The notes beneath the pieces are model-generated. The model did not search any database. It was not told the origin of the DNA and saw only the letters and a list, made by a program, of their open reading frames with translations. Position numbers and translations under genes: made by a program. A DNA stretch of 64,000 bases from Candidatus Poriferihabitaceae bacterium (GTDB lineage: Bacteria > Pseudomonadota > Gammaproteobacteria > Arenicellales > Poriferihabitantaceae), in the NCBI GenBank assembly GCA_965261915.1, contig CBDHDW010000013.1, forward strand, positions 2,804,561 to 2,868,560, read 5' to 3'. Shown piece after piece: positions 27,858 through 47,364 of the stretch (within the stretch, counting starts at the first letter, position 1; each line of letters opens with the position of its first letter).

Positions 27858-28400
27858 TCACTTTGTAATATCTTCATCACCAATTTTATGCTCCCAATTT
27901 TGCTTTGCCGACAGATGCTTTTTGTTCCATTTCGATACCCCGACAACAGGCTTCTCAAACGTCATTTTGGTCAGTCCTGCCACATGTAAATCTTCAATTT
28001 TCTTTGGGTTATTGGTTAATAATCGCATCGGTCGGTTGCCGAGGAAATATGAAATCAAGGCGGCTGCATCAGTGAAATCTCGCGAGTCGGCAGGAAGCCC
28101 CAAAGACTCATTCGTCTGCTAGGTGTTTTCTCCCGCATCCTGTACAGACAGGTTGCTGCCTTTGCCCATAAACCGATGCCACGCCCTTCATGTCCCGCCA
28201 TAATAGACAATCATCCCGCCGCTCGGTTCCGCGCCAATGTGACTGATGGCAGATTCGAGTTGCGGGCCACATTCGCAACGTTCAGAGCCGAATACATCAC
28301 CAGTTAAGCAGCTTGAATGAACCCGCACCAAAGGCGCGTCTGAATTAGCAGGATCGCCAATCATTTGAACACTATTGACCGCCATAGAGGGGGCTTGCAC
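27858..28400 (-). pseudogene. ribA: GTP cyclohydrolase II, 5'-truncated and frameshifted
   Basis: [25 protein letters not shown] (zinc site) in ORF 28188-28400 and LLTNNPKKIEDL in ORF 27858-28103, in different frames; the N-terminus is cut at the island edge. Confidence 0.65.
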
Positions 28401-28486
28401 GGTCTCTTCCGCAGGAATGACGAGGGGTTAGCCGTGGCGTTATTTTCGTCATCCTTAATAATGTTGCTCCGCACCGGTAAGATTAT

Positions 28487-28514
28487 AAAGCCGACCAGCC
28501 ATCTGGTCGGCTTT
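28487..28514 (-). terminator. hairpin downstream of the ATPase-Toprim gene
   Basis: Perfect 12-bp stem AAAGCCGACCAG / CTGGTCGGCTTT with loop CCAT, followed on the minus strand by TTTATAAT. Confidence 0.5.
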
Positions 28515-28519
28515 ATAAT

Positions 28520-30205
28520 TTATCTTAGATGAGAAAATATACTATCAAGCGTTTCTTTCATCTCATCATTTAACTGCTTATTGTCAAGATATTCAACTAA
28601 TAGATAAAATTTTGATTTATCCATTGTGTTTCTCGGTTGATTGGTTTCGTCTAAAAATTGCTCGAAAATTTTGCTGAGAAAATCGCTCATTTTATTGTCT
28701 ATCCAAAAATTATCTGCTGGATTCTCATAAGCAACAGGCGGTATATTGCCTTTTAGAATACGCTCTAATTCTGCTGGATGAGTGTGCGAAATTAAATCAT
28801 TGGCATTAGATTGATTGTTGATGTAGTTCATCAATGTGCTGGGCATGGGAATGTAGTTTTCTATTTCATTACGCTGCCATTGATACATTTTAAGGTCATT
28901 TGGAACATCTTGAAAATCCTTATCCAATTTATCAAATAAAGCAAACCCTTTTAGGTGCGGCAGGTATTGCTTCAAGGCAGAAAAGTGTTTTTTTGCTTTG
29001 CCTATATCATTACCATCAAGCGGAAAAGGATAGAGAGTTGTATTTAATTGTTCAAGGTATTCCTGCTTGTCTAATTTTTGACAAAATGCGCGTATAAATG
29101 CTAAATCAGTCGAGCCTTCATAATATAAGATGAAGGGTCTTTGTTTGGCTAACAAGTATTGTTCATAAGGATATTCCGATAAAAAGGCTTTAATAGATCT
29201 CGTGGTTTCTTTTTCAAACCGGCCCGACATAGAGGAAACAATCAGATCATCTTTAGCGGCATTAAGCACACTTTCTGAATGGCTGGCGATAATTAACTGG
29301 CTGTTATTGCATTTAGCAAAATCGCTTAAACTGTGATAGATGTTGGCTTGCTTAATCACTTCAAGGTGAGCGTCAGGCTCATCGAGTAAGTTAATGGTAT
29401 TTTTGAATGCGCCTAAATAGGCAAACAGTAAAATGGTTTGTTTCGCTCCGCTACCAAGGGCAGAAAGCGACATTTTTTTATTGGCCGCTTCATTATAACT
29501 AAGCTCCAACAAACCACTATTTGGATGATACTTGGGCGTATTTAACTCAATGGCAAATAAATCCTGAACCCTTTTGACCAATTCATCCCAGCCTAGTTTG
29601 TTATTTTCATACAAGTGATAACAAATATTTCGCAACACAGTGGCAGTTTGCCCCTCACTAATACGGCGAAGAATAGAGCCGGTCTCTAACTTGTCTTCTT
29701 TCGGACTAAGCCCAGATATAGAAGGTAAAAAACCAATATTTTCGTTGTGTAAAACAGGCTCAAACTCATAACCATCGATGAGTTTGGTATAAATGAGGCT
29801 ATCGCGCTGATAACTAAATTCAAAACCCACTTGCCATCGCTTTGTTTCCTGCGTTTGGCTATAAGTTTCACCGGCAGCATGGATTTCTATCTTGATGGGT
29901 TTGGTACCTTTTTTCTTTGCTTCACCTTGCCTGGTTTTAGTATTTTGCCATAATTCCTTAAACTCGGCGGCGGGTATGTTTATATCGCTCAAATTTATAG
30001 CAACACCCGTGCGTAGATTTTTTTTAGTAGGATTATCAAGACGTTTTTCAGCCCATACCTTGATTGCCATTGCCAATAGTGAAAATGCCTGCAACAAACT
30101 GGTCTTACCGCTATTATTAGGACCCACCAAAACTACTACTGGTTCAAGGTCTATGGTTTCATCAGCAATTTGTTTATAACCTTTAATCCTAATTTGGGTA
30201 ATCAT
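28520..30205 (-). CDS. ABC/AAA ATPase fused to a Toprim-like (DUF4435/OLD-type) domain; OLD- or PARIS-like single-protein candidate
   Basis: Walker A GPNNSGKTS, signature LSALGSGAKQ, Walker B INLLDEPDAHLE, ASHS; C-terminal FILYYEGSTDLAFIRAF and ALFDKLDKD resemble a Toprim Glu and DxD. Confidence 0.65.
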   Translation of the reverse strand: MITQIRIKGYKQIADETIDLEPVVVLVGPNNSGKTSLLQAFSLLAMAIKVWAEKRLDNPTKKNLRTGVAINLSDINIPAAEFKELWQNTKTRQGEAKKKGTKPIKIEIHAAGETYSQTQETKRWQVGFEFSYQRDSLIYTKLIDGYEFEPVLHNENIGFLPSISGLSPKEDKLETGSILRRISEGQTATVLRNICYHLYENNKLGWDELVKRVQDLFAIELNTPKYHPNSGLLELSYNEAANKKMSLSALGSGAKQTILLFAYLGAFKNTINLLDEPDAHLEVIKQANIYHSLSDFAKCNNSQLIIASHSESVLNAAKDDLIVSSMSGRFEKETTRSIKAFLSEYPYEQYLLAKQRPFILYYEGSTDLAFIRAFCQKLDKQEYLEQLNTTLYPFPLDGNDIGKAKKHFSALKQYLPHLKGFALFDKLDKDFQDVPNDLKMYQWQRNEIENYIPMPSTLMNYINNQSNANDLISHTHPAELERILKGNIPPVAYENPADNFWIDNKMSDFLSKIFEQFLDETNQPRNTMDKSKFYLLVEYLDNKQLNDEMKETLDSIFSHLR

Positions 30206-30265
30206 TTTAATCTTTCCATCCTGTTTATCTAATCATCGGTAAGGGCGTAGAGTTTATAACCTGGC

Positions 30266-30487
30266 TCATCTATTTGGGTTTTCGGTTGGCTTTTCGGTTT
30301 TGTCGTTCGGCTTGGGCATATCATCTGGCAGGATACGCACTACTTTTTCGCCGTCCCAAACAACGGCATATTGTCCTAGCCTGCGCTTTTTTTCTAAAGC
30401 CGCCGCCACGCTTCTATTAAGGGCTTCTGCTATTTGTTGCGCCTTTTTTTCCATGTCTTTGATGGTTGGTTTATCTGATGGCTTCAT
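30266..30487 (-). CDS. small charged protein coupled to the zeta-like kinase (possible cognate antitoxin)
   Basis: 73 aa; ATGA start/stop overlap with the upstream gene (30484-30487). Confidence 0.45.
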   Translation of the reverse strand: MKPSDKPTIKDMEKKAQQIAEALNRSVAAALEKKRRLGQYAVVWDGEKVVRILPDDMPKPNDKTEKPTENPNR

Positions 30488-31062
30488 GTGCGGGCACGCT
30501 CTATAATGGTTTGATAAATGATTTTATTCTGAATGATTATACCCTGCTGTGTTTGAGTGAAAATAACCTTCTCCTGCTTTTGCGAATTATCCAAACACAA
30601 TACGCTATCACATAGTGGCGCATAGTGATGGACAAGATTATTGATGCTTCTGGGATAGCGTCTGGCAATAGAGGTTAGCGCAATATCATGTCCACCATGC
30701 TTAACTCTTTCTGCAACCCGCTCAATAGATAATTGCACGCTCGGCAAGTAGAGATAAATCAGATCAACAAACCAGCCATCTGCCTGTAATTGACGAATGA
30801 GCTTCAAATAACTCCTGCCCGATAAAGTAGTTTCAAAGGCGAAATTTCGCTTACGCGCAACGGCTTGTTTAATTTGCTGTAGAAACAGGCGGTTGGCGGT
30901 TATTTGTTGCTGGGTTGGATCCAGGGGCGACAAACCAACAGCGATTAAGTCGGCGTTAATAAAATACTTGCAAGCTACATTGTTCGCCAGATAATCGAGT
31001 GCAAAAGTTGTTTTACCCGAGCCATTGACCCCGCCAATAATGGTGCAAATGGGCTTGATCAT
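30484..31062 (-). CDS. zeta-toxin-like P-loop kinase
   Basis: 192 aa, Walker A GGVNGSGKTT near the N-terminus, FINADL..., FETTLSG, RVKHGGHDI pattern typical of zeta/AAA_33-type kinases. Confidence 0.7.
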   Translation of the reverse strand: MIKPICTIIGGVNGSGKTTFALDYLANNVACKYFINADLIAVGLSPLDPTQQQITANRLFLQQIKQAVARKRNFAFETTLSGRSYLKLIRQLQADGWFVDLIYLYLPSVQLSIERVAERVKHGGHDIALTSIARRYPRSINNLVHHYAPLCDSVLCLDNSQKQEKVIFTQTQQGIIIQNKIIYQTIIERART

Positions 31063-31207
31063 GTCGAATCCTTAATAACACCAATCTCATCGGTAAGGTC
31101 ATAAAGCTGATAAATCATTTGGTCGATGTGGGTTTTCAGTGTGTGCGTGTATTAGGTTTGTATGAGCCGTAATAATTAGAATATTAAATGGTAATAATCC
31201 TGTTGGT

Positions 31208-31732
31208 CTATTCATCAAAAAGTTCATTTGAAGAAAATTCTTCACCATGAAATATATAAACATCATCATCCCTTTCAGCTTGGTTCTTAATAGGTGTTTT
31301 TTGAGACATATCATTAATAATCAATACTTTTTTGTGTTTTATTTTTAAGTCTTCCAGTTCACTTCCGCAATGCGTAATTAATAATTGCCTTAAATAGTGC
31401 ATTAAAGGAACACTGCATTTTAATTGTTTAGAGGCTCTTTTTATGCCACTGTTTGATTTCTTTAATTCACACAGGATGAAGCTAACATTATCGCTATTTT
31501 TTTGTATAAAAATATAATCGCAATTATGATTATACCGAGATGCAACAAAGGAAGCGTGAGAATTGTCGCCAACATCAAATACGATTATATTGTCATTGTT
31601 TTTCGATAGAATAGTGGTCTTGTATTTATTCGGTTTTTGACCACCCTTTAAGACAAACACCTCATCTTTACAAAATTGAAGTTTATTTTTTTGGACAACT
31701 TCAGCGAAGCAATTCCACAAATTAGTCATCAT
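31208..31732 (-). CDS. small protein with a putative PD-(D/E)xK nuclease core
   Basis: 174 aa; NCDYIFI ... SFILCELKKS gives D-x17-E-x-K in alternating beta-like segments; 11-nt overlap with the upstream ATPase gene. Confidence 0.5.
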   Translation of the reverse strand: MMTNLWNCFAEVVQKNKLQFCKDEVFVLKGGQKPNKYKTTILSKNNDNIIVFDVGDNSHASFVASRYNHNCDYIFIQKNSDNVSFILCELKKSNSGIKRASKQLKCSVPLMHYLRQLLITHCGSELEDLKIKHKKVLIINDMSQKTPIKNQAERDDDVYIFHGEEFSSNELFDE

Positions 31733-33101
31733 TTTCGTTGCTCAATTCTGCTGTTAGATGGCGAGATATTTTGTTCATTTTAATAATAGTATCGTCAAAA
31801 CTGGACATCGCCAAACCAAATTTATCTATATCACATTTTGTCGCACCTCCGTTTTCACAAATATAACCACTTACTTTATCTTCCGACAAAAGCATTTCTT
31901 TTTTGTAGTCTTTATGCTGTGCTAGGAAATTTTCTGTATCGGAAATGTTAGACAACATAATTAAATTGTTTATCTCTTTAATAAAATAATCACTGTGCGT
32001 TGTTACCAATACTTTCAAACCAGCCGATACACACATCGCTAAAAGCCGTGCCATGTGTATCTGGTTTTCAGGATTTAAGTGGCTTTCTGGTTCGTCAATA
32101 ATTAATAATTGATCTTTTTTAGCGATACATTTTAGGAAAAAGTATAAATTGGTAAAACCTCTGGCAGAGGATGATGCTAAATGCAGGGGAATATCAAATT
32201 TATTATCTTTTGTACGTTGTTTAGATATTAGTTTAATTTCATTTTCATCAACCCGATAATACGCATCCATCATATCTTTAATGTAGTCAAAAAGTTTATC
32301 GGTGTTGATTTCTGATGTTTCTTTTGAATGAATGCTTAAATCTCTGACATAGTCTATATTATCCTGAATAGCGACGGCATAACGAGAGGAAAACCTATTT
32401 AGCACATCAAATGGAGCAAATTTACGCCCTTTTTCCCCTTCCATTTTTTGCAACATTTCAACAACACGATTTTTAGCCACATCCAACTCCTTATAAAATA
32501 GCGATATGCCAAATCGTTCGGCAGAAATAATAAATGCTGTCTTTTTAGCCAGCAACAGACCGACAAAAGTATCATTGACGATAGAGTCCATAATATAATC
32601 TGGAATCTTTTCTTTGGTGTTTAAGTTAAAAATCAATTCGCTGCCTTGACGATTAGCATGAATGGCACTCACATTATTATCACCCTTTCCATCAACTTTT
32701 ACTCTCATTCCAAATTCAGTTTTATTGTCATCAATCTCAAAATCAATAGAAGTGTTTTTGAAATGCGGTTTATTAGAACGGAAAAACAAATGTAAATCAT
32801 CAGAGTATTTGCTAGATAACTCCTTTATCATATTTTCTTTTAACACTTTAAATTGTGCATCTGTCATTGAAATAGTTGCAACACCTTGAGTTGATAATTG
32901 TTGTGTAATATCTTGTGTATAAGGGTGCATTGAAATAGTATCCACATGATTATGATCAGACAGGTTATTTAAAAACCCATATATCGCATAAGAAATATAA
33001 GTTTTACCCGAATTATTTTTGCCCGCAATAATCGTTAGATCATTTAGCTCTATTTCTGCGTTTTTGATTGGGCCTAAATTTTTAAATGTTGCTTTTAACA
33101 T
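31722..33101 (-). CDS. AAA_15/AAA_21-type ABC-like ATPase
   Basis: Walker A GKNNSGKTY, Walker B LLIIDEPESHLNPENQ, TTHSDYF; 459 aa. Confidence 0.8.
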   Translation of the reverse strand: MLKATFKNLGPIKNAEIELNDLTIIAGKNNSGKTYISYAIYGFLNNLSDHNHVDTISMHPYTQDITQQLSTQGVATISMTDAQFKVLKENMIKELSSKYSDDLHLFFRSNKPHFKNTSIDFEIDDNKTEFGMRVKVDGKGDNNVSAIHANRQGSELIFNLNTKEKIPDYIMDSIVNDTFVGLLLAKKTAFIISAERFGISLFYKELDVAKNRVVEMLQKMEGEKGRKFAPFDVLNRFSSRYAVAIQDNIDYVRDLSIHSKETSEINTDKLFDYIKDMMDAYYRVDENEIKLISKQRTKDNKFDIPLHLASSSARGFTNLYFFLKCIAKKDQLLIIDEPESHLNPENQIHMARLLAMCVSAGLKVLVTTHSDYFIKEINNLIMLSNISDTENFLAQHKDYKKEMLLSEDKVSGYICENGGATKCDIDKFGLAMSSFDDTIIKMNKISRHLTAELSNENDD

Positions 33102-33330
33102 GTTGTTTTACCTAAATAATCTATATTTTATAGTCATAAATCTACAAATATTTCCTGTTTCCTATTATATGCCATTCTCAATAATGTTTATTTCATCATC
33201 GGTGAGGTCATAAAATTTATAGACCATCTTGTCTATTTGGCTTTCAATAGGCTTGACTGCTGTTCTATTCGTATCACTTTATTCATCATCCCCGCAAATC
33301 TATATTCGTTATTCCTGAGCCCACCAACCC

Positions 33331-33642
33331 CGTCATTCCTGCACCGTTCCGTCATTCCTGCACCGTTCCGTCATTCCTGTACCGTCCCGTCATTTCTGCA
33401 CCGTTCCGTCATTCCTGCACCGTTCCGTCATTCCTGCACCGTTCCGTCATTCCTGCACCGTTCCGTCATTCCTGCACTCGTTCCGTCATTCCTGCACCGT
33501 TCCGTCATTCCTGCACCGTTCCGTCATTCCTGTACCGTTCCGTCATTCCTGTACCGTCCCGTCATTTCTGCACCGTTCCGTCATTCCTGCACCGTTCCGT
33601 CATTCCTGCACCGTTCCGTCATTCCTGCGAAAGCAGGAATCC
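33331..33642. repeat. about 15 tandem copies of a 19-bp unit ending in a complete palindromic element
   Basis: Unit CGTCATTCCTGCACCGTTC (minor variants, one 20-bp copy) from 33331; array ends with CGTCATTCCTGCGAAAGCAGGAATCC (33617-33642). Confidence 0.95.
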
Positions 33643-33713
33643 AGTCAAGCTAAATCTTTATATAAATCCTTCCAATACGGGTTCTTATCTTCAATCAGCT
33701 TCAGTTTCCATGC

Positions 33714-33950
33714 TCACTTCCATTTCTTGATTTGCTTTTCGCGCGTAATCGCCGCATACCTATCGCCATGCAACTCGAAATAGACCAAAAGGGTCATATT
33801 ATATTTCTCGCTAAATCCTTTGACCAAATGATTTTTATGTTCCCAAATTCGTTTGATTAAATCTGAAGTAACGCCAGTGTATAAGGTGCCATTAGGCTGA
33901 CTTGCCAGAATGTAAACGGCGGGTTGTTTATGGCTCATGGCATTAGTCAT
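33714..33950 (-). CDS. GIY-YIG nuclease family protein (small UPF0213/YhbQ-like), ended early by an in-frame TGA
   Basis: VYILASQPNGTLYTGVTSDLIKRIWEHK...REKQIKKWK. Beyond the TGA the same frame reads AWKLKLIEDKNPYWKDLYKDLA* down to 33645, which is the normal family C-terminus. Confidence 0.75.
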   Translation of the reverse strand: MTNAMSHKQPAVYILASQPNGTLYTGVTSDLIKRIWEHKNHLVKGFSEKYNMTLLVYFELHGDRYAAITREKQIKKWK

Positions 33951-33951
33951 T

Positions 33952-33977
33952 GGATTCCTGCTTTCGCAGGAATGACG
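33952..33977. repeat. palindromic element GGATTCCTGCTTTCGCAGGAATGACG
   Basis: Exact reverse complement of the element at 33617-33642; lies 2 nt upstream of the GIY-YIG start. Confidence 0.9.
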
Positions 33978-34114
33978 GGGTCAAGGGTGGCGTTATTTTC
34001 AATAATACCAATCTCATTATCGGTGAGGTCATAAAATTTATAAACCATCTTGTCTATTTGGCTTTCAATATGCTTGACTGCTGTTTTATTCGTTTATACA
34101 AAACACGCTTTTCT

Positions 34115-34139
34115 TATAAACGTTATCAAAACGTTTATA
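34115..34139 (-). terminator. weak hairpin downstream of the five-gene operon
   Basis: Perfect 10-bp AT-rich stem TATAAACGTT / AACGTTTATA with a 5-nt loop, about 50 nt after the TPR gene stop; no clear U-tract. Confidence 0.25.
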
Positions 34140-34189
34140 AATTTTGTAATATTTTAATCAGCACAACATTTTCTTTCCATTATCTTGGT

Positions 34190-35374
34190 TTATTTTTTTA
34201 TGCGTTTTAGTAGTTCATCAATTGCTGTTATCGATTCTTGTTGATTTTTACGCATTGAGTAGGCGATGCTCTCAATTATTTTGGGTATGAAATTCTGATA
34301 ATGTGGATTATCTTTAGTTTGTTGTATCTTTTCAAACATCTTTGCCATCGCCAATCGGTTGCTGGCTTCAATGCGTAGCTGTTTGGCGTTGGTGTATTGG
34401 CGGATGATAATAAACGTAATGACTGATAGGAAAATATAGAGGGGATACACAATTTTATAGTCTGCTTTAAGACAGAAAATTAAATACAACAAACCACCGA
34501 AAACAACAATGACCATCACAATACTTGCACAAAGCCAAACTGTCTCTCCTTTTTTATATTCATCCCTTAACTCTTTGAAAATCTCTTGGAAATTTTGAAC
34601 TTCTGTAACTTTCTCCTCTGTTTTTTTAACTTGCTCCTTTGGAATAACAGTCGGGTCTAATTCATTGGCATCTTTAAAATCTTGTATAGCCTTTTGTTCT
34701 TTGCCTATGCTTCGATAAGCCACACCACGATTATAAAAAGCTATCGCAAAGTTAAGGTTTAATTCAATGGCTTTATCAAAATCTTGAATGGCAAGGTCAA
34801 ATTCACCTTTGTTATAATAAGCTACCCCACGATTGTTAAAAGCATCGGCAGGCTTGGGGCCTAAGTCAATGGCTTGGTTAAAATCTTTAATAGCCTTGTC
34901 AATTTCGCCTTTCTTTTCATACGCTAAACCACGATTGTTAAAAGCATCAGAATTTTTAGGGTCTAATACGATGGCTTGGTTAAAATCTTGAATGGCTCGG
35001 TCAAATTTGCCTTGCTTGTCATAGGTCAAGCCACGATTGCTAAAAGCCCCTGCAAACTCTGGGTCTAATGCAATGGCTTGGTTAAAATCTTGAATGGCTC
35101 GGTCAAATTCGCCTTTATTGCCATAAGCCGCGCCACGATTGTTAAAAGCAGCAACAAGTTTAGGGTCTAATGCAATGGCTTGGTTAAAATCTTGAATGGC
35201 TCGGTCAAATTTGCCTTGCTTGTCATAGGTCAAGCCACGACTGTTAAAAGCCCCTGCAAACTCTGGGTCTAATGCAATGGCTTTGTCATAATCTTGAATG
35301 GCTTGGTCAAATTCACCTACTTTAAGATGTACATCACCTTTCTCAAAAAATTTTATTGCTTGTTCTTTACTCAT
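34190..35374 (-). CDS. TPR-repeat protein with two C-proximal transmembrane helices
   Basis: About 7 consecutive 34-aa TPR units (AIQDFNQAIALDPxxAxAFNNRGxAYxxxGxFDR), then VWLCASIVMVIVVFGGLLYLIF and IVYPLYIFLSVITFIIIRQY; ATGA overlap with the upstream gene. Confidence 0.85.
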   Translation of the reverse strand: MSKEQAIKFFEKGDVHLKVGEFDQAIQDYDKAIALDPEFAGAFNSRGLTYDKQGKFDRAIQDFNQAIALDPKLVAAFNNRGAAYGNKGEFDRAIQDFNQAIALDPEFAGAFSNRGLTYDKQGKFDRAIQDFNQAIVLDPKNSDAFNNRGLAYEKKGEIDKAIKDFNQAIDLGPKPADAFNNRGVAYYNKGEFDLAIQDFDKAIELNLNFAIAFYNRGVAYRSIGKEQKAIQDFKDANELDPTVIPKEQVKKTEEKVTEVQNFQEIFKELRDEYKKGETVWLCASIVMVIVVFGGLLYLIFCLKADYKIVYPLYIFLSVITFIIIRQYTNAKQLRIEASNRLAMAKMFEKIQQTKDNPHYQNFIPKIIESIAYSMRKNQQESITAIDELLKRIKK

Positions 35375-38300
35375 TTTGTTTCCTCAATAATTTTAATCTC
35401 ATCATCGGTGAGGTCATAAAGTTTATACACCATCTGGTCGATTTGGGTTTCCAGTGTGCTGGTGTCTTGCCCCTGTTGTTTAGCGGTAAGGATTTTATCC
35501 ACTAATGCTATAAACGGTTGTTGTGCTGGTTTTGATATTTTCGGGATGGGAATATTAACTAAAGGTTCCTTATCTATTTGATAGTTATTTCCTTGCATTT
35601 TGCCTTTGTAACGCAACCAGAAGGCAACTAATTTAGAGTTTAAAAGAGCCGTTAAATATTTAAGGTTGAAACGGCTAGTTTTTATCACATAGAATGTTGC
35701 TGATAAATAACTATCAAAATCTACATAAGTAAAAATAGGTTCGGAAGGGCATTTACGCTGAACAGCAATTTTCTCACCAATAAAGAATTTCTCTTTTCTC
35801 GCCCTATGTAAGCCATAAGGTTTATTGTCGGACGTAATAATTCCCTGAAATTTATCTAAATGTTTTTTTAAGTTTGGGAATCTATCAAGAGAACCTGCTT
35901 TGTTATAACTCGAATCGGTATATATTATAAATTTATCATCGCTTTTCTGCGGATAATATTTTTGAAATTTGCTTGTGTCAGAATAGTATCTTTTTAAAAA
36001 TTTCTTTTCCTCTTCGGTTAAATTTAATTCCTGTAATTCACTATGATTTATCCCAAAGATACCGTCCCCGACACTAAAAGTAGAATCAAGATTAAGCAAC
36101 ATTTTTTTTGTTACAAAGTCGTAATGAGGATGAATACCATTAGCTACTTCATTTTCCATCAAATAATCAATATCATTATTCAGAACTGAATTCAGGACAT
36201 TATCAATTCTCGGATTATTAAAAGTTATTAAAGAACCGTAATAAAGAGAACTATCAAAATTCAATGTGTATTTTTCGCCTAGATCATCATCAGCATTAAA
36301 AGATAAAAAATCTGAAAGTTGTTTTTGCTTTATTGAATCATCTTTCAGTAAAGAATATTTCAATGGGTAACACTTGCTCGGCATTTCTTTTTTTAGCAGA
36401 TAAGTCATAGTTTGTATTCCTGCCGATTTGAATACTTTGTAATTTCGAAAATCTGTAAATGACTTTATTTCAGTTTCCCTTAGCACTTTATTTCTAAAAA
36501 TAGAAGCCCCAGCACTTGTTGTCCAATTATTTTGTGCAATAAAACACTCAATACCTTTTTGCTTTAGTAAATCTAAACTTACGCAAGCAAAACCGTACCA
36601 CAAGTCCATTTTTCCTTGATAGTATTTTGAGGTTCTAAACCCATTAAATGCTTCTTTGTTCGTGTATTCTTTAATATAAGGCGGATTACCAATCACAATA
36701 TCAAAGCCATTCACGCCAAATTGCCACTCGGGATTAAACCAATCGGCGATGGCGTTTTGATTGTATAAATCCCAATGAACGATTCTTTTTATGCTGGTTT
36801 CACCGGCTGGTGTGATGGCGCTTTCGTTTAATTCTGCCAGCATGTGCTCACGCAGGGCTTTGTCTTTAGCTCGGTATTTGCGTTTGGTGGTTAAGGTCTT
36901 GGCACTAAAATACTTGTGCCTGACTTGGGCTAATTGTTGTTGTAGTCTCTCGATGCTAACTTCAAATAGGTCGTTTTGCTTTGGCATCTCGCCCAAAGGC
37001 AACAAACTATTCGCAACAATAAACTTGGTTTCTAAATTCGGCAGGGCTTTGATTCCGTAATTATCGACTTTGTTTTTGTTGGGGCTTTGTTCAATGGTCA
37101 GGCTGATAAAAAAGCGCAGCTTGCAGATTTGAATGGCGATGGGTTGAATGTCCACGCCATAAATACAGTTTTCTATCAACATTAATTTCTTGCCATAGGC
37201 GTTATGCTGATTTTGTTGAGAAAAAACCTGCTCTATCGCCGCTATGGCACTGGCGCAACTGGCTTCATCGGGGATTTGTTCTGCCTTGTCGATTTGCTGT
37301 TGTTTGAAATGAGTGTTTTCTGCATCCACTTTTTCTAAAATCAGCACCAGCCGTTGCAATATGCCCATCGGATACGCACCACTGCCCACCGCTGGGTCAA
37401 GGATTTTTAGCCCATCTATGGCATAAATCAGGGCTTTTGTTTGTTGCTTATCGAGGGCGTTTTCTTGTTCGGTGAATTCAGCGTCAACAAACAGGGCATT
37501 GATTTGCTCGTCTGTTAGGTCGGTGTGCTGGTGAAAATGCTGTTTCAGGCTTTCATCGACCATATAATTGACAATTTCACGCGGGGTGTAAAAACTGCCG
37601 GTGGCTTTGCGCGCCTGCTGTCCGGTTTCCGGGTTATAACTGGCGAGCAGGTTTTCAAACACCTTGCCCAATAGCTCGGGGTCAAGGGCGACTTCAACAT
37701 CCAACGGCGTGCTTTCCTCAACGGTGAATTGGTATTGATTGAACAAGTCAATCAAGCCTAAATCCTGCTTATCGTCCTGCTTATTGTCATTGAAAATAGT
37801 GTCCTTGAAAAATAGGTGATTATGAAAAACCAATTCATTATCAGCCCTATCGGAAAAGCCATCAATGCGAATGGCACTGCCTATCGGGCGAATCGTTTTA
37901 TCATTATCGTAAGCCTGTTTTTCCTCATCGCTTGCCTCTCGGTCTAAGCATTCAAACAAGCCGCCGTTTAGGAACGGTGCTTGGTCAAATAAAGCGATAA
38001 TTTTGTCTTTATCCGAATCGATGAAATAATCTTGATAGCGGTAGATATTGGTGACCAGATAATTGGTGCTATTTGCCGCTCCGTTGGTTGTGTTGCGAAA
38101 ACTACGCTCGGTGACCGGACGGTTGAGGGTGGCAAAAAACAGATTTTGCAGAATCGCCTTGTAAAAACTGCTGGGCTGTTCGTAATCGATCAGCGTTTGT
38201 AATTTATCTTTATCAAATAAATCCGCCTTGATTAGCCCCTTCTCTTTGATAAACCAGATGAATAACAACCGCGTCAACAGGCGAATCAGGCTGGTTTGGC

Positions 38301-38883
38301 TGTGGTTTTCGGCTTGCTCGTCATTGGGAAATACGACTTGGCATTGTGCTTTTTCATACCAGCGATACAGTTTGTCGTAAAATTCCTTGTTCAGCTCTTC
38401 AACAGAAAAAGCGGTTTTTAAGTCTTCTAGCGTGGATTGCTTGTGAAGTTGTTCAAAACGCTCTATTGCGGTTCTGGTTTTGGCGTTCTCACCTAACAGA
38501 TAGGTAAAGCGTTTGCTGGCGGTTTTCTCTGTAGTTACGCCAGTATCGGTGAAACGATATTCAATGGCAACAAAACTAAATCGCCATTGTTTGTTTTCAT
38601 CATCCACATAAACCGCTAAAGCACCGTCTTCGCTGCCAATTTGCTTGGCAACCAGATTGCGTAATTGCACACGGTTTCTGCTTAATTGGGTGTTGGGCTT
38701 GATATGAATTTCAAAGACGGGCAACGATTTCCCGTCTTGGCTGGTAACGGTACCGAGTTGTTGGAGGGATTCAACATCGTTATTGTCTATAACGATAGGC
38801 ACAAGGTGCTTGGCAAAATTGAATTTATCTGCCAGAAAATCAAGGTAATTTCCTCGGTCATAGGCTTGGTTGAGGAAGTTCAT
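35371..38883 (-). CDS. 1170-aa Eco57I/MmeI/PglX-like N6-adenine DNA methyltransferase (type IIG-like architecture)
   Basis: FLNGGLFECLD, TGSFYTPREIVNYMV, motif I ILDPAVGSGAYP, motif IV VIGNPPY (36676-36687), C-terminal TRD and the typical tail QIDQMVYKLYDLTDDEIKIIE. Confidence 0.9.
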   Translation of the reverse strand: MNFLNQAYDRGNYLDFLADKFNFAKHLVPIVIDNNDVESLQQLGTVTSQDGKSLPVFEIHIKPNTQLSRNRVQLRNLVAKQIGSEDGALAVYVDDENKQWRFSFVAIEYRFTDTGVTTEKTASKRFTYLLGENAKTRTAIERFEQLHKQSTLEDLKTAFSVEELNKEFYDKLYRWYEKAQCQVVFPNDEQAENHSQTSLIRLLTRLLFIWFIKEKGLIKADLFDKDKLQTLIDYEQPSSFYKAILQNLFFATLNRPVTERSFRNTTNGAANSTNYLVTNIYRYQDYFIDSDKDKIIALFDQAPFLNGGLFECLDREASDEEKQAYDNDKTIRPIGSAIRIDGFSDRADNELVFHNHLFFKDTIFNDNKQDDKQDLGLIDLFNQYQFTVEESTPLDVEVALDPELLGKVFENLLASYNPETGQQARKATGSFYTPREIVNYMVDESLKQHFHQHTDLTDEQINALFVDAEFTEQENALDKQQTKALIYAIDGLKILDPAVGSGAYPMGILQRLVLILEKVDAENTHFKQQQIDKAEQIPDEASCASAIAAIEQVFSQQNQHNAYGKKLMLIENCIYGVDIQPIAIQICKLRFFISLTIEQSPNKNKVDNYGIKALPNLETKFIVANSLLPLGEMPKQNDLFEVSIERLQQQLAQVRHKYFSAKTLTTKRKYRAKDKALREHMLAELNESAITPAGETSIKRIVHWDLYNQNAIADWFNPEWQFGVNGFDIVIGNPPYIKEYTNKEAFNGFRTSKYYQGKMDLWYGFACVSLDLLKQKGIECFIAQNNWTTSAGASIFRNKVLRETEIKSFTDFRNYKVFKSAGIQTMTYLLKKEMPSKCYPLKYSLLKDDSIKQKQLSDFLSFNADDDLGEKYTLNFDSSLYYGSLITFNNPRIDNVLNSVLNNDIDYLMENEVANGIHPHYDFVTKKMLLNLDSTFSVGDGIFGINHSELQELNLTEEEKKFLKRYYSDTSKFQKYYPQKSDDKFIIYTDSSYNKAGSLDRFPNLKKHLDKFQGIITSDNKPYGLHRARKEKFFIGEKIAVQRKCPSEPIFTYVDFDSYLSATFYVIKTSRFNLKYLTALLNSKLVAFWLRYKGKMQGNNYQIDKEPLVNIPIPKISKPAQQPFIALVDKILTAKQQGQDTSTLETQIDQMVYKLYDLTDDEIKIIEETK

Positions 38884-39728
38884 TACCTTCTCTGTGCATT
38901 TTTAATGGCGATAATAAGATGGTCAATTTCCTCTATGTAAGAGGTCAAATCCGAAAAACATTTCAATTTCTTCAGGGTCGAGTTGCCTTGCAAATCGACA
39001 AATGCATTTATTTCAGTGTGAGCGATATGATTTCTTGATTCATTAAACTTGGATATTTTGGTATTATTTTCGTTCAAATTAAACGTCTTTTTTACTATTT
39101 TATGTTTTGAACTAAAGGCTAATTCTTTTAGTACCTCCTCTTTCACGTCATCTTCTATGCCAATTTTTTCACCAAAAGCGTACTCCACTTCCAGATGCTT
39201 TTTAATGATTTGTTCTTTGATATGGCTTAACAAGGACACACCTACTAGCTCTTGTTTTTGTTCTGGTGTGATAACATTTTTTTCAGAGAATACTGCAACG
39301 GTATATTTGTTTGGATAGCTTCTATCCAACATTTGTTGCAAGCCATCTTTTATACTAGAATGTTGATCGATATATTTGCTATTGATTAAGAAAGAAATAC
39401 TGTTTTCACTCAAGTTTTTATCCAATTTATCCAAAATACCGGCTATTTTTCCAATGATATTTTTAACATCACTGTTATCATTTATGCCTGTAAGGTGCAA
39501 ATCACAAATAACATGTTTTACCTTTGAAATTTGATGATTCTCTAATTTTTCTAAATCATCTATCTCACCAGTTGACCAGATTACTTTTAAGTTTTCTCTG
39601 GTCAACTCAAAATAAAGTGGCATTATGGTTTTATGCCAAGAAGAGTGATTTTCAGATCCTACCACCAAACCATCAAACAAAGACTCCCCGGAAAAATCAT
39701 CATCAATTATCAAAATGTCATATAGCAT
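38883..39728 (-). CDS. receiver-like N-domain plus C-terminal HEPN-like (Rx4H) domain protein
   Basis: YDILIIDDD, HVICDLHLTG (Asp76), FLINS; C-terminal SRNHIAHT (39018-39035); 1-nt gap/overlap to both neighbours. Confidence 0.5.
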   Translation of the reverse strand: MLYDILIIDDDFSGESLFDGLVVGSENHSSWHKTIMPLYFELTRENLKVIWSTGEIDDLEKLENHQISKVKHVICDLHLTGINDNSDVKNIIGKIAGILDKLDKNLSENSISFLINSKYIDQHSSIKDGLQQMLDRSYPNKYTVAVFSEKNVITPEQKQELVGVSLLSHIKEQIIKKHLEVEYAFGEKIGIEDDVKEEVLKELAFSSKHKIVKKTFNLNENNTKISKFNESRNHIAHTEINAFVDLQGNSTLKKLKCFSDLTSYIEEIDHLIIAIKNAQRR

Positions 39729-41790: not shown

Positions 41791-43049
41791 CCGATAACCA
41801 CGAATTCTTCTGCATAAATTTTTCTACTGCTTTTATTGCTAGCAAACCTGCCGTTTTTGGTTCTATAAGGCGTTAAAAACTTGTTGGATATTTTTCTTTT
41901 GCAAACTTCTATCTTGGTGTATCCTGCCTCGAACATGCTTTCGGTTAAATGTTTTGCATTATCGATACGGACTTGCTTGTATTCAGTATTACCAATGACG
42001 AATAAAGCATAACCACCAGGATTCAATAATAAATAAGATTTCTGTATAACTTTCTGCATATCCACAAAGTATTTGGCTGCATTCTTAGCCCTGTTTTTGT
42101 CAACCTCCATTAGTTCGTCAACATTGATAAGCCCTGTTTTGTTTAGTTTGTCTCTGTTCTTATTAAAATCAGAGATATGGAATGAACTACCGATTGAACC
42201 TTTTCTAAAAACCCTAAAATCACTTGCAAAATCAAGCCATAATAAACTCATTTGATGTAAATCAGCGTATTCATAAGAAGTTACATAGGGGGGACTTGTT
42301 ACCAACAAATCCACTTTTTTATTGGTAATTCTCTTTTTCATAAAGTTTCGCGTCTCAATAATGACGCTCACATTTTTGGGAATTATATTTTCCAGATTAG
42401 CTTTTTTCATTACCTTGAATTGTTTATAAAAAGCATCCCAAACATTCACTACTTTCTTCTCATGGTCGATAGTTGGCTTTATTGATTTTTGCAACCATCT
42501 GGATGTTGGCTTAAGGATGTTGGAAAAAGCACAAAGGAAAAAATTTCTATACTTGCTTTTTGCCGAAATACTGCAGTATATGGCTGATTTGAGTTTGTCT
42601 AACTCCTCAATTTGTTGAATATCAAACCAATATTTGATTCTCTCATTAATGTTGGAAAGTGACTTTTGTTTTGCCATAGCACGATTAAATTCATCGGCTA
42701 TTTCAATAAAATATTTATCCAGCGTAGCCTGCTTATATGTGCCACTTTTTACTTTTGCAATAAGAGTAGCAACGGGGTTAATGTCACATCCCCAAAAATC
42801 TTTACCATTTCGTGACGCTTCATAGGCGACAGTGCCACAACCGCAGAATATGTCCGCCACGACATTAACTTCAAATTTCCTAGAAGAAGCGATTTGCAAT
42901 GCCTTATTCGTAATAAATGCGGGAAATTTAGCCGGATATGTATGAATTTGATGCATTTTGTTTTCCTGCTGATGCTCATAATTCCATTGTGGATCAATTT
43001 CTAATGCATCAAAATCAACCCATTGTAAATCCTCGTTTTTTATTAACAT
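41775..43049 (-). CDS. DNA methyltransferase, alpha-type motif order, SPPY motif IV (N4-cytosine or N6-adenine)
   Basis: IHTYPAKFP, motif I DIFCGCGT, CDINPVA, about 180 aa spacer, motif IV LLVTSPPY. Confidence 0.8.
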   Translation of the reverse strand: MLIKNEDLQWVDFDALEIDPQWNYEHQQENKMHQIHTYPAKFPAFITNKALQIASSRKFEVNVVADIFCGCGTVAYEASRNGKDFWGCDINPVATLIAKVKSGTYKQATLDKYFIEIADEFNRAMAKQKSLSNINERIKYWFDIQQIEELDKLKSAIYCSISAKSKYRNFFLCAFSNILKPTSRWLQKSIKPTIDHEKKVVNVWDAFYKQFKVMKKANLENIIPKNVSVIIETRNFMKKRITNKKVDLLVTSPPYVTSYEYADLHQMSLLWLDFASDFRVFRKGSIGSSFHISDFNKNRDKLNKTGLINVDELMEVDKNRAKNAAKYFVDMQKVIQKSYLLLNPGGYALFVIGNTEYKQVRIDNAKHLTESMFEAGYTKIEVCKRKISNKFLTPYRTKNGRFASNKSSRKIYAEEFVVIGWKKQ

Positions 43050-43940: not shown

Positions 43941-43996
43941 GGAAAACCTGGCGGGTTTGGTTGTTTCACTGGATTCCTGCTTTCGCAGGAATGACG
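43941..43996. repeat. intergenic repeat ending in the palindromic element
   Basis: GGAAAACCTGGCGGGTTTGGTTGTTTCACTGGATTCCTGCTTTCGCAGGAATGACG, then a partial extra GCGGGAATGGCG. Confidence 0.85.
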
Positions 43997-44019: not shown

Positions 44020-47000
44020 TTAGGTATATGATTGCGAAATGACGATGGTTGGCTGGATGTTTTTAAGTTTTTTTGCTTGCTCTGGGTTATCTTCTATATG
44101 GCGGTTAAGGTCATATGTTTGAATGATGTCCAAGGTATTTTCCAATACCACAACAGGCTGGATATTTTTACCTCTTATATTGTTATTTAATCTGTTGATA
44201 TTTCTGGTTAGGTTTTGAAAGCGTTTCTGTTTAATTTGTTCGATTGCCAGCTTTATTTTGTCTGGTTCCTCGTCATTGGCGGCATTGATTTCGGAGAGAG
44301 CTAGCATTGCTTTTAGAAAGCGAATCGCATTTTCTTCCACCACCGCTAAGGTGTTATTTTGATTGTCATTGACAATATCTTGTGCTGTTTCAGATTTGAA
44401 TTTATCTAATGCCGATGATACCTGGCTGTGATGCCCATCAGGTAAGTTTACTGCCGGGGTGTCGGGGATGCATTTTAATAATTTGGCGGTTTGGATAAAG
44501 CTGTAGGTTTTAATGAAAGGGGCAATGTTATTTTCATTGCCGACATTTTCTGCTTCAGGTTTCAGCATATAAAACCGACTGCTGCCCTTGCCTTCGGTGC
44601 GAGCAAAAACCAGCGTTCCGCCTTTATGGGTAGCGTTTTTCACTGCATTTCTGACCTTGCTCGGCAACCCCTTGATGCGTTTATAGGCGGCTGGGTCATT
44701 TTTTCTGAACTGCCGTATTTCTTCTAAAAACGGGATGGTTTCATTCACTTCTTCTTTGATATTTTCATCAAATATGCCGAATGTATCGACTTCTTCATCG
44801 GTTGAATAAATTTGCGAATCTTCGCCTAAGGCCGAATGAAAGGCTTGCAGTTTAATCAATGCTTTTTTCCGCAGTTCAATATCATCGTCAATTTGCGCGG
44901 TCGGATAGAAATTATGGACAAAGATATGGTTCGCCGTTTGTCCGATACGGTTGACCCGGCCGATGCGTTGCATCAGTTTGGTGGCATTCCACGGCGTATC
45001 ATAATTGATTACCGTGTTGGCTCGGTGCAGGTTGACACCCTCGGCTAATACATCTGTGGTTAAGAGAATTTGATGTCTATTTAGCTTGTCTGCGGCATCT
45101 ATGTTGGCATCAAAATTATTTTTAATGGTTTGCTTGAGTTGATTGCGGTTTTTAGCATTGACGCTGAGTGTTTTTTCGCTGTATTCGGTTTGTTTTATTT
45201 TCTTTGTTAGATAGTTCATGGTGTCGGTGCTTTCGGTAAACAGCACGATTTTCTGCTTTGGATTGTTTTGTTTGTCTAAAAAATTTGGCAGTCGGGTTAA
45301 AAACTCATGCAGTTTTGGGTCGCCGGTTTCGATTATGCCGTCCCAATCCGATTTTAGTTTTTTTAACATGTCGTAGTCATGTTTGACACCATCAATAAAG
45401 CCCTCTTCAAAATCATCGTGACAACAAACAATAATACTGGGGTCGGTTAGACTTTCAGTGGCAATAAGCTCCATTAATTCGTCTTCTTTGTCGTCCAATA
45501 TAAGACTATTTACATCAATGTTTGGGGCGATAATGATTTTATTTTTAACAATCATTGTTAGCATCACCTCTGATGATTTGATAAAACGCCCTAAGGTTTG
45601 CCCAAAGGCATAAAAACTGCTGTCCATTCTTTTCAGTAACAGTGTTTTCATAATACCAACCAAGCGATCAGCAATAAAATCGGCTCTTTTATATTGTTGT
45701 TTGAATTCTGGTTTTAGATAGTGCAAAGCACGGTAGCGGGTATGAAGTAAGCCGCTTTTATTTTGCTTTTTGTTATCAATTTTTTTGATGGTGCTGTCGT
45801 ATAGTTGCTCCAGTTTCGCTTCCAATTTATAGTAAATTTTTTGTGGTGGAGTTGTGTGTGGAAACACAATGCCATGCTCCAGCAAATCTTGTTTGTAACG
45901 CTTGTTTGCCAATAAATCAGTGCGGGTTCGGCGCACCATAAGCGGCGTGATAACGCTTCCGCGGATTTTTTCATACAGTGCTGCTGTTCGCTGACGAGCT
46001 ATGTGTTTATCCGGCATTCTTAGAATGTCCTTATATTCTTTATTTACCTTAGTAAAAAATTTTGCGAGATGGAAATCAAGCGTTGAATTGTTGCCGTCCT
46101 GGAACAATAAAATCTGGTGGTATAAATCATTCGGGCGGTTATTCAGCGGCGTGGCGGAAATGAGCATCACTTTTTTCTCCTTGCCGCCCTTGTCCTTATC
46201 GTGTTCGGTTTTGGTTTTGCAAATGCGTTGTAATTGGTCGTATGCTTCTGCGCTATCGTTGCGAAATTTATGCGCCTCATCGACAATGACCATATCATAG
46301 TCTTTGGCGTTGGTAATATTGTGCAAACTGCCGTTGGTAATAATCTGAAAGGCATCATCTATCTTAAAACTTGCTAAGGTATCCTCCCAGTTTTGTTTTA
46401 GTGCCGGCGGAATCACCAATAAAATTTTAGAACGATAATCAGGATAGCCATTGTGGTAATAAAACTGACGCGCAATTAAAACAGCAATAACGGTTTTGCC
46501 TAAACCGACCACATCGGCGAGAAAAAAGCCATTGTGTTTTTTTAGCATTTGCCAGCCTTCATTGACCGCATCCATTTGATAGGACAGACGCTTAAAGTCA
46601 TCGGGCAAGTCTTTAATAGAGTTCGGGTCAAATTCAATTTCCGCACCAAAATATTCAATCAGGCATTTCAAATACAGTTCATAGGGCGTGATGTTATCGG
46701 CTAAATAGGTTTTTTTGAGGCTGTCTTCGGCGACTTGTGGCAGTATTTCTATGCCTTCCTGCCATAATTTTTCGAACTCGGCAGTGGCAAATTGAATATC
46801 GTTATAGTCGTTTAACAACACATTAAATTCGTAATTAGGACTGCTTCCTGTGCCCAATCCGGCATCGGTGAGGTTTGACGAGCCGGTAATCACGCTGCCG
46901 CCTTTATGCGGGTTGTAGTCATCGGGGCGAAAAATATATATCTTGGCATGAATGGCGCGGCTCGGATGCGCTTTGATTTGCACTTTTTGGGTTTTTATAT

Positions 47001-47364
47001 CCTCAATAAACTGCACAATGCCCTGCTCGGTTTGGGCATCATAATTGGCTTCTTGAACATCAGTGCTGAATTTCTTCTGCCAGTCTTTGATGGTTTTTTC
47101 GCGGTCTCCATTAAATAAGGCTAATCCATCCGCGTGCATTTCTTTGGTTATTTTATCGACATCGATACCCACCAGAATGCGGATGTGGGCGATATTTTCC
47201 AGCAATGGTCGCAGTTTGAAATACCCTGAAGAGCGGAAATAACCGACCAGAACATCAAAATTATTGATGTTTTGGTTGTGCTGAAAAATGCCTTCAAGTT
47301 TGTTGAATAAGGTGTTTTCCTGGCAGTTGGTAAAGAATTTGCTGTTCATTAGTTTTTCCATCAA
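44020..47364 (-). CDS. PLD-family nuclease domain fused to an SNF2-type helicase
   Basis: Single HKD: AIHAKIYIF...VITGSSNLT; helicase motif I DVVGLGKTVIAV, motif II VIVDEAHKFRN, C-terminal TTDVLAEGVNL...QRIGRVNR. Confidence 0.85.
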   Translation of the reverse strand: MMEKLMNSKFFTNCQENTLFNKLEGIFQHNQNINNFDVLVGYFRSSGYFKLRPLLENIAHIRILVGIDVDKITKEMHADGLALFNGDREKTIKDWQKKFSTDVQEANYDAQTEQGIVQFIEDIKTQKVQIKAHPSRAIHAKIYIFRPDDYNPHKGGSVITGSSNLTDAGLGTGSSPNYEFNVLLNDYNDIQFATAEFEKLWQEGIEILPQVAEDSLKKTYLADNITPYELYLKCLIEYFGAEIEFDPNSIKDLPDDFKRLSYQMDAVNEGWQMLKKHNGFFLADVVGLGKTVIAVLIARQFYYHNGYPDYRSKILLVIPPALKQNWEDTLASFKIDDAFQIITNGSLHNITNAKDYDMVIVDEAHKFRNDSAEAYDQLQRICKTKTEHDKDKGGKEKKVMLISATPLNNRPNDLYHQILLFQDGNNSTLDFHLAKFFTKVNKEYKDILRMPDKHIARQRTAALYEKIRGSVITPLMVRRTRTDLLANKRYKQDLLEHGIVFPHTTPPQKIYYKLEAKLEQLYDSTIKKIDNKKQNKSGLLHTRYRALHYLKPEFKQQYKRADFIADRLVGIMKTLLLKRMDSSFYAFGQTLGRFIKSSEVMLTMIVKNKIIIAPNIDVNSLILDDKEDELMELIATESLTDPSIIVCCHDDFEEGFIDGVKHDYDMLKKLKSDWDGIIETGDPKLHEFLTRLPNFLDKQNNPKQKIVLFTESTDTMNYLTKKIKQTEYSEKTLSVNAKNRNQLKQTIKNNFDANIDAADKLNRHQILLTTDVLAEGVNLHRANTVINYDTPWNATKLMQRIGRVNRIGQTANHIFVHNFYPTAQIDDDIELRKKALIKLQAFHSALGEDSQIYSTDEEVDTFGIFDENIKEEVNETIPFLEEIRQFRKNDPAAYKRIKGLPSKVRNAVKNATHKGGTLVFARTEGKGSSRFYMLKPEAENVGNENNIAPFIKTYSFIQTAKLLKCIPDTPAVNLPDGHHSQVSSALDKFKSETAQDIVNDNQNNTLAVVEENAIRFLKAMLALSEINAANDEEPDKIKLAIEQIKQKRFQNLTRNINRLNNNIRGKNIQPVVVLENTLDIIQTYDLNRHIEDNPEQAKKLKNIQPTIVISQSYT

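Follow-up and report, generated by a model that had tools for sequence, protein, structure and literature searches.

In this study, we analysed a 64-kb stretch of DNA (hereafter the window) that carries a low-GC defence island in the chromosome of a sponge symbiont, the nearest relative of which is Candidatus Spongiihabitans. Within this island, a complete gene for a type IIG-like DNA methyltransferase (MTase) is followed by an array of short copies of the last ~25 codons at its own 3' end (hereafter tails), each joined to a different cassette of one or more genes. Our analyses suggested that homologous recombination in the tail has probably stacked and exchanged defence cassettes here, by a '3'-end displacement' like that of Rhs genes, and that the tail leftovers may be the sites at which bacteria, even those of different phyla, swap their cassettes. 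The assembly of defence islands is an open question, for which usually only integrases or mobile-element hotspots are invoked. Here, a recognisable scar marks each junction, both in sponge symbionts belonging to at least five phyla and in other environmental bacteria, and because these scars are shared, the history of gain, loss and exchange should be directly readable.

The window contains six tails (Table 1), one live and five orphan, all on the minus strand like the other relevant genes between 28.4 and 47.4 kb, and only the first of them has the upstream open reading frame (ORF) of the MTase. The tails directly precede a TPR protein, a GIY-YIG element, PD-T4-4, a zeta-like kinase and an OLD/AbiL-like ATPase, in the order MTase, tail 1, TPR, tail 2, GIY-YIG, tail 3, PD-T4-4, tail 4, zeta, tail 5, OLD, tail 6. 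A repeat search of the window returned one family of direct repeats with five copies (at 30233, 31087, 33196, 34017 and 35402), in which a 99-nt sub-family joins the copies at 33174, 33995 and 35380; the first two of these, belonging to tails 3 and 2, are 90% identical over 99 nt, and each is 87–88% identical to the live tail. Four orphans were found when the last 60 MTase residues were compared with the window by tblastn (E = 1.5e-9, 1.4e-8, 9e-8 and 7e-5), and blastn aligned the live tail with the orphans over 69, 68, 65 and 60 nt, at identities of 88%, 87%, 85% and 78%, respectively. In the multiple alignment, tails 1, 4 and 5 share the end column ...AAATGA, with the TGA stop overlapping the ATG of the gene behind it. 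With increasing rank in the window, tails 2 to 6 become less identical to the live tail (0.81, 0.79, 0.78, 0.70 and 0.71).

The original prediction of one live and four orphan MTase 3' ends, each upstream of the next cassette, was confirmed by the repeat search, tblastn and blastn, and the similarity held in the multiple alignment as well. All five of its copies were recovered, but a sixth exists at the far end of the array. Its four orphan translations were reproduced exactly, except that the one at 31059-31145 begins with HTLKTH and not with TLKTH. To call the shared DNA near-identical was an overstatement, given the percentages above. Moreover, the 24 nt that precede the ATG of the OLD-like gene are no spacer but the decayed remainder of tail 5 behind a premature TAG, because the homology reaches the ATGA junction known from tails 1 and 4. 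Tail 2 is longer because the hairpin-bounded GIY-YIG element is inserted at its end.

A scan for MTase homologues with one genome per species yielded 80 loci, and related MTase loci in other genomes are designated by L-numbers (L001, L008 and so on). The close set comprised 18 loci (the window and 17 others) with MTases 54–90% identical, all of them metagenome-assembled genomes (MAGs) from sponges or relatives, including some independent assemblies titled as complete chromosomes. Tails were searched for with, among others, an nhmmer profile built from 18 live MTase 3' ends; this set contains 58 tails in total, and cassette families were defined by simple ORF calls. Of the 18 close loci, 14 carried between one and five orphan tails downstream of the live MTase. 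The close set covers Candidatus Spongiihabitans, Pseudohongiella and Halieaceae (Gammaproteobacteria), Leptospiria (Spirochaetota), Rubritalea, Ekhidna (Bacteroidota) and Nitrospinales, and the loci with orphan tails span MAGs of five phyla, i.e. Gammaproteobacteria, Spirochaetota, Verrucomicrobiota, Bacteroidota and Nitrospinota. More than one direct tail was also found in 16 of 80 more distant metagenome contigs, which had been retrieved with the tail peptide and many of which are short, and in 3 of 37 distant genome loci having at least 3 kb of downstream sequence. These occurrences indicated that tail arrays are not confined to sponge symbionts. It is scarcely credible that chance similarity or an error of assembly or binning has produced the pattern: most comparison loci do come from MAGs, but matches within a window of only 64 kb are as strong as E = 1e-9 (protein) and 3e-19 (DNA), long reads exceed the repeats in length, and the same architecture is repeated in independent assemblies.

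Cassettes were found reordered in other genomes, behind live or orphan tails. The OLD-like gene, cassette 5 in the window, stands behind an orphan tail in L008 (87% identity between window and L008) and behind the live tail in L010. For zeta, the preceding tail is the live one in L038 and an orphan in the window, L005 and L008; in L004 and L006, zeta closes a cassette of four genes. PDC-M19 was found both behind a live tail (L021) and behind orphan tails (L006, L010 and L014), and a restriction-modification unit with a C5-MTase follows the live tail in L006. Blocks of DNA homology between the window and its relatives break at or within tails, ending at 31063 (zeta start), 33617 and 33978 (hairpins), 33992 (inside tail 2) and 28529 (the OLD-like stop by tail 6). 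Specifically, the window and L008 are 94% identical from the GIY-YIG element through the 73-aa ORF, and L008 then has about 3.7 kb extra before its OLD-like cassette, flanked by two direct copies of the 3' end of the 73-aa gene plus tail. Like the conversion patch described below, this difference counts as a recent change in the window. This insertion or deletion bounded by direct repeats that include a tail, the reordering of cassettes with homology breaking at tails, and the mosaic tails and conversion patch described below are four lines of comparative evidence in favour of the earlier proposal that modules were stacked or swapped by recombination at the MTase tail; the reading of the tails as a recombination hotspot building the island was supported as well.

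The anatomy of the tails bears on another explanation, namely that five more complete type IIG genes once stood in tandem with their partners and that each was deleted to its last 20–45 codons, as the original prediction had offered in the form of at least four such genes. Orphan 5' ends lie at profile positions 47–175, with a mode at ~153–161, and the 3' ends are nearly always the natural end (224–242). Equal 5' ends occur in genomes of different phyla having different neighbouring genes. Other MTase pieces are lacking: the window array contains no fragment of residues 1–1110, and the downstream regions of the 17 related loci together contain a single one, of 38 aa. Decay in place could point to occasional longer remnants (170 aa in L038, 105 aa in L001 and ~60 aa in L008) and to two full MTase copies per locus in L001 and L038, but complete 3' ends joined to variable 5' ends that are often common to several genomes do not suit it, nor would simple deletion be expected to make tails mosaic. 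Since no other MTase piece persists in the arrays, we consider the decay of whole genes improbable. In L001 and L038, the two full-length MTase paralogues enclose tail-bounded cassettes, so that whole MTase genes can also belong to the array.

Among the orphans, a class beginning TAVKHIESQID... and preceded by a ~35-nt non-coding leader comprises tail 2 of the window and tails in L004, L005, L009 and L038, with neighbours that differ by locus; tail 3 and its L008 counterpart fall in this class from ACGAATA onward. In five loci the TPR cassette is followed by a tail of this class, as expected if the unit were circularly permuted around the tail.

The tails themselves are mosaics, in which the 5' and middle part tracks the host locus and the last ~25 nt track the downstream cassette. 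We aligned the last 84 nt of 53 tails and shuffled the family labels. Pairs from the same locus showed an excess identity of +0.09–0.10 in the 5' and middle part, dropping to +0.02 at the 3' end. Pairs from different loci with the same downstream cassette, apart from one small peak of +0.09 at the extreme 5' edge, showed about zero excess over most of the 5' and middle part and +0.10–0.135 in the last ~25 nt. Label permutation yielded p-values of 0.002 (last 30 nt) and 0.12 (remainder). The switch of linkage is gradual inside the tail, which fits homologous crossovers and not a single cut site. In addition, tail 2 is orthologous to orphans of L004 and L005 on both sides of a central patch of ~20 nt that is identical to tail 3, a pattern that points to conversion from tail 3.

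The last ~25 nt of the tail probably also serve the following gene as its translation-initiation region. The ATGA overlap with the next ORF (at least 60 aa) was found in 25 of 58 tails, ahead of at least 10 unrelated gene families, and a motif resembling a Shine-Dalgarno sequence, usually the GAGG of ...ATTGAGG..., lies inside the tail 5–17 nt upstream in 19 of 27 cases. Live tails show the overlap in 11 of 18 members of the close clade vs 4 of 47 distant relatives. Even where no tail precedes them, the genes for zeta and PDC-M30 begin at the same codon, and the junction therefore lies at the native start of these genes.

The anchor gene is a mosaic as well. Its 5' two-thirds (36673-38871) show 90–97% DNA identity to L003–L009, a level that holds among MAGs of Gammaproteobacteria, Verrucomicrobiota and Bacteroidota, with lower but clear identity to Spirochaetota; such identity across phyla implies recent transfer of the locus between them. 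The segment of the specificity domain (target-recognition domain), 35556-36672, cannot be aligned to L003–L009 and is 86–89% identical to L001 and L002 (Leptospiria and Halieaceae), and the last ~170 nt are conserved again at 91–94%. Compared with its nearest relative L005, a Spongiihabitans chromosome, the window is 97.4% identical over 10.7 kb, and this identity stops inside the MTase gene, where the specificity-domain segment has been swapped. A conserved 5' part, a swapped target-recognition domain and a conserved 3' part imply that the tail is already a crossover zone for specificity swapping.

In the mechanism we propose, the anchor is a horizontally mobile gene for a type IIG-like MTase, usually paired with an SNF2-PLD helicase-nuclease, and the whole tail (the last ~60–100 nt of the MTase gene) would act as portable homology. 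General homologous recombination from tail to tail would explain the gain and loss of cassettes as well as their stacking and exchange. By one route, a looped-out circle of tail and cassette would enter a resident tail through a single crossover, as in the Rhs C-terminal displacement model; by another, a double crossover would replace a cassette flanked by two tails. Each event would leave a 5'-truncated orphan tail ahead of the displaced cassette. Recombination of the RecA type and circular intermediates are inferred, as would be any stimulating role of the GIY-YIG nuclease.

Several points weigh against this mechanism. If every new cassette came in at the live tail, orphans would be expected to decay with rank, but across arrays this age gradient is weak and not significant (within-locus Spearman -0.34, p = 0.06), and strict insertion at the proximal end is not claimed. 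Tails of only 60–100 nt that are 70–94% identical make a poor substrate for RecA-type recombination. Neither a circular intermediate nor a transfer vehicle was seen: the exact tail DNA pattern had no match in viral contigs or in JGI metagenome contigs, and the tail peptide had none in phage collections and, in plasmids, matched only four single live tails, which are cyanobacterial. The model also leaves unexplained how an unrelated gene was first joined to a tail at its own start codon. Furthermore, most comparison genomes are MAGs, the cassette families rest on the simple ORF calls, and the tail pairs of the mosaic test are phylogenetically non-independent.

The GIY-YIG element raises the question of nuclease-driven or site-specific exchange, in which the tail would be the target of a dedicated enzyme, GIY-YIG being the candidate, and breaks would be repaired from other tails together with their flanking cassettes, like co-conversion in homing. 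The element ends in two perfect inverted repeats of 28 nt (33951-33978 and 33616-33643), each containing the hairpin ATTCCTGC-GAAA-GCAGGAAT. A 19-nt tandem array (Table 1) is also present in L008, similar repeats lie beside the GIY-YIG copies of L010, L011, L014 and L020, and homology blocks to the latter four loci stop at the element hairpins. In its catalytic domain and its insertion at a conserved target, the element resembles GIY-YIG homing elements. Of 13 GIY-YIG copies in tail-bearing loci, 9 share the strand of a tail and start no more than 160 nt past its end, vs ~2% expected by position; two element subtypes with different hairpins both depart from the tail right after ATYATTGA; and in L003 and L008 the element, with its hairpin, is found at the live tail as well and lengthens the MTase ORF by a few codons. 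These positions make targeting of tails by the element plausible, and the element, found repeatedly at tail ends, may contribute to exchange; a role in driving cassette exchange is conjecture.

As the main force, such a nuclease seems unlikely to us. Many arrays have no GIY-YIG copy (e.g., L004, L005, L006, L009, L012, L013 and L038), and the ORF of the window copy (33714-33950) has a premature TGA, leaving 78 aa vs 101 aa in the intact L008 protein. The protein is just a catalytic domain of ~100 aa in which Pfam detected no DNA-binding domain, some of the shared junctions may be inherited and not independent insertions, linkage shifts over at least 30 nt of the tail and not at a single point, and domain scans of the island ORFs found no tyrosine or serine recombinase. 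Solo hairpins lacking the GIY-YIG gene were also observed, at 43970-43995 and 48151-48173; one of these closely follows the helicase gene, in a position common to L003, L005 and L008.

The arrays also have features that recall integrons. Among array ORFs of at least 150 aa, 41 of 42 are co-oriented with the MTase; the arrays thus look operon-like, and they are presumably co-transcribed. The search for terminators or promoters between cassettes was uninformative, as terminator-like sites showed no excess over shuffled sequence. Co-oriented, promoter-less-looking cassettes, each with a repeat of ~60–100 nt behind one expressed anchor, would suit tails that act as folded attC-type sites on which an integrase from another part of the genome works. 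This is very improbable: five tails and two reverse strands gave no stable single-strand fold (z-scores -1.3 to +1.6), none of the island ORFs tested encodes an integrase, the repeat belongs to the coding part of the anchor gene, and the 5' boundaries are heterogeneous. A true integron was rejected, as no IntI-type recombinase was found in the island ORFs scanned and no attC-like fold better than that of shuffled sequence. Other arrangements were rejected as well: an hsdS-type shufflon, since the copies are all direct repeats without specificity-domain sequence or a recombinase, and an integrative element restoring the 3' end of its target, since the cassettes are 1–2 defence genes without an integrase. 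A bolder form of our mechanism, which we regard as possible yet doubtful, would be a recombinase-free, integron-like system of anti-phage cassettes, in which the tail of a promiscuous MTase gene is both recombination site and ribosome-binding and start module and perhaps receives its breaks from a tail-homing GIY-YIG nuclease. Whatever gene came to lie behind such a tail could then be captured, expressed and stacked, and could move among bacteria of different phyla that live in one host.

The great majority of the genes preceded by tails are known or candidate defence systems. Matches included PDC-M19 (1e-101 and 1e-115), SoFic (1e-110) and GajA (8e-183), in addition to PD-T4-4, PDC-M30, PDC-S21, PDC-S02, PDC-S19 and the restriction-modification unit with C5-MTase and HATPase. 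Several genes directly behind tails match no Pfam or PADLOC family (L008 18493-19059, L013 22471-22815, L105 1608-3005 and L116 1735-5064); by their position, they are candidate new defence genes.

Table 1. Positions in the window of the tails, the cassettes, the anchor gene and the genes upstream of it.
Feature	Position	Strand	Remarks
Tail 1, live 3' end (QIDQMVYKLYDLTDDEIKIIEETK, then stop)	35375..35460	-	TGA stop overlaps ATG of TPR gene
Tail 2, orphan, 'TAVKHIE' class	33985..34084	-	~35-nt non-coding leader; frame continues into hairpin to 33947
Tail 3, orphan (TAVKPIESQIDKMVYKFYDLTDDEINIIENGI, then stop)	33165..33263	-	identical peptide over 30 matched residues at L008 15458-15547
Tail 4, orphan with 3-nt deletion	31059..31161	-	TGA overlaps ATG of zeta-like gene
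Tail 5, decayed orphan	30201..30282	-	in-frame TAG at 30229-30231; homology runs to ATGA start of OLD-like gene
Tail 6, most decayed orphan, end of array	28446..28509	-	nhmmer E = 2e-5; directly after OLD-like gene, then ribA fragment
Cassette 1, 394-aa TPR protein with hydrophobic C-terminal part	34190..35374	-	Pfam TPR_1 1e-75
Cassette 2, GIY-YIG element inserted at end of tail 2	33616..33978 (363 bp)	-	GIY-YIG domain 1.2e-12
19-nt tandem repeat, 15.7 copies (CCGTCATTCCTGCACCGTT)	33330..33628	.	built from hairpin half-site CCGTCATTCCTGC
Cassette 3, PD-T4-4	31208..33101	-	gene A 31722-33101, gene B 31208-31732
Cassette 4, zeta-toxin-like kinase and 73-aa ORF	30266..31062	-	kinase 30484-31062 (Pfam Zeta_toxin 4e-9), 73-aa ORF 30266-30487
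Cassette 5, 561-aa OLD/AbiL/Gabija-A-like ABC-type ATPase	28520..30205	-	Pfam AAA_15, AAA_21
Live 1170-aa Eco57I-family (type IIG-like) N6-adenine MTase with TaqI_C specificity domain	35371..38883	-	array anchor
BbrUII/HgiDII-like restriction-modification unit: N6_N4 MTase, HATPase enzyme, 281-aa ORF	41775-43049, 39730-41790, 38883-39728	-	
VapBC pair	43132-43775	-	between helicase and MTase
SNF2 helicase with N-terminal PLD nuclease domain	44020..47364	-	upstream of MTase in 15 of 18 related loci

The anchor enzyme combines a gamma-class N6-adenine MTase and a C-terminal specificity domain in one polypeptide, as type IIG enzymes do. It matched Pfam Eco57I (1.7e-31), N6_Mtase and TaqI_C (2e-9) and PADLOC REase_MTase_IIG (5e-69), and its relatives in the PDB are CamA, BseCI and PglX. 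Residues 1 to ~370 have no Pfam domain; for this reason, and because a separate SNF2-PLD nuclease-helicase is encoded upstream, we call the enzyme only 'type IIG-like'. The BbrUII/HgiDII-like unit between VapBC and the MTase is present in the window, L005 and L021 and absent in L003, L006 and L008, and a related restriction-modification unit with HATPase is a tail-preceded cassette in L004 and L006.

Regarding the cassettes of the window, the TPR gene is probably coupled to the MTase in translation by the ATGA overlap, and the TPR cassette stands behind the live tail in L004, L005, L011 and L012, too. The gene contains 102-nt DNA repeats (34715-35318, 5.9 copies, 79% identity), and the repeat number varies among loci, the protein having 360 aa in L004, 394 aa in the window and 530 aa in L005. 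PD-T4-4 is represented by adjacent A and B genes overlapping by 11 nt, of which A matched the PADLOC model over its full length (1e-109) and B weakly (2.4e-5; PDC-M47B 8e-6). The PADLOC matches of the OLD-like ATPase include NsnB, AriA, AbiLi, GajA and Old.

The GC content of the island is 34–41% vs 44–49% in the flanks, and from this contrast the island looks acquired. Gene fragments form its borders: a ThiF-like gene (47372-47904), split into ORFs of 69 and 112 aa and intact with 253 aa in L005, and ribA (28188-28400), a 70-aa fragment of GTP cyclohydrolase II. The domain scans of the island ORFs found no integrase. Transposases in the window are of the DDE type only and lie outside the island (3521-4918, 22197-22916 and 22982-24335; DDE_5, DDE_Tnp_1 and DUF772), and peptide matches between 4513-4548 and 22567-22602 and between 5442-5468 and 21647-21673 suggest repeated copies of insertion sequences. 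An additional N6_N4 DNA methylase gene (18719-19669) is outside the island as well.

If the tail is a portable module for recombination and expression, orphan tails would provide a sequence signature for new defence genes, co-resident bacteria of different phyla would have a route to share immunity, and the array would serve as a naturally occurring blueprint for placing one gene after another behind an anchor, with no recombinase needed. The value of the recombination reading, if it holds, would lie in a readable and general mechanism for building defence islands. Our full-text literature search, the coverage of which was incomplete, returned no description of defence-cassette arrays delimited by MTase tails.

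The closest known parallel is provided by Rhs genes. In the Rhs model, homologous recombination loops out a circle, and its re-insertion by a single crossover shunts the old tip downstream (Jackson et al., PMC2935791); related cases are orphan Rhs toxins (PMC3967940) and the sequential displacement of effectors of the type VI secretion system (PMC5361080). The arrays described here seem to fit what that model would predict. First, as in orphan arrays of Rhs, CdiA and type VI effectors, an intact anchor is followed by co-oriented, 5'-truncated fragments, each joined to a different module. Second, the same modules occur behind the intact gene elsewhere (the OLD-like gene in L010, zeta in L038, PDC-M19 in L021 and the C5-MTase unit in L006). 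Third, the conserved pieces vary in length. In contrast to Rhs arrays, it is the very 3' end of the anchor, a gene for a DNA methyltransferase, that is conserved; the modules are one or more separate anti-phage genes and not a C-terminal toxin domain of the anchor with its immunity gene; the anchor protein is unaltered by the exchange; the conserved piece probably also gives the cassette its start codon and ribosome-binding site; and the exchange spans phyla.

Chromosomal integrons carry defence cassettes as well, and the arrays resemble integron arrays in their co-oriented cassettes bounded by a repeat of ~60–100 nt, with a unit that looks as if circularly permuted around the repeat. Unlike integrons, they have no IntI, attI or folded attC, the repeat codes for part of the anchor, and crossovers are spread along it. 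In the 'domain movement' of Furuta and Kobayashi, target-recognition domains of Type I hsdS and Type IIG genes reportedly move by recombination in conserved flanks. The MTase mosaic is similar, with the tail as the downstream homology arm for specificity switching; whereas parts of an enzyme are exchanged in domain movement, the homology here additionally moves complete defence systems located downstream, and orphan copies of it remain. Free-standing GIY-YIG homing endonuclease genes and the dRS3/NIME repeats and 'minimal mobile elements' of Neisseria are the comparators for the GIY-YIG element, which shares with them a small GIY-YIG gene, hairpins of the type ATTCCN-N8-NGGAAT, a conserved gene position and arrays of half-site repeats, but differs in having no detected DNA-binding domain. 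Finally, as in other defence islands, known and candidate defence systems cluster beside a system of the restriction-modification type. Usual defence islands are explained by mobile-element hotspots or integrases, whereas here a repeated sequence marks each junction and suggests a route by which the island was assembled.

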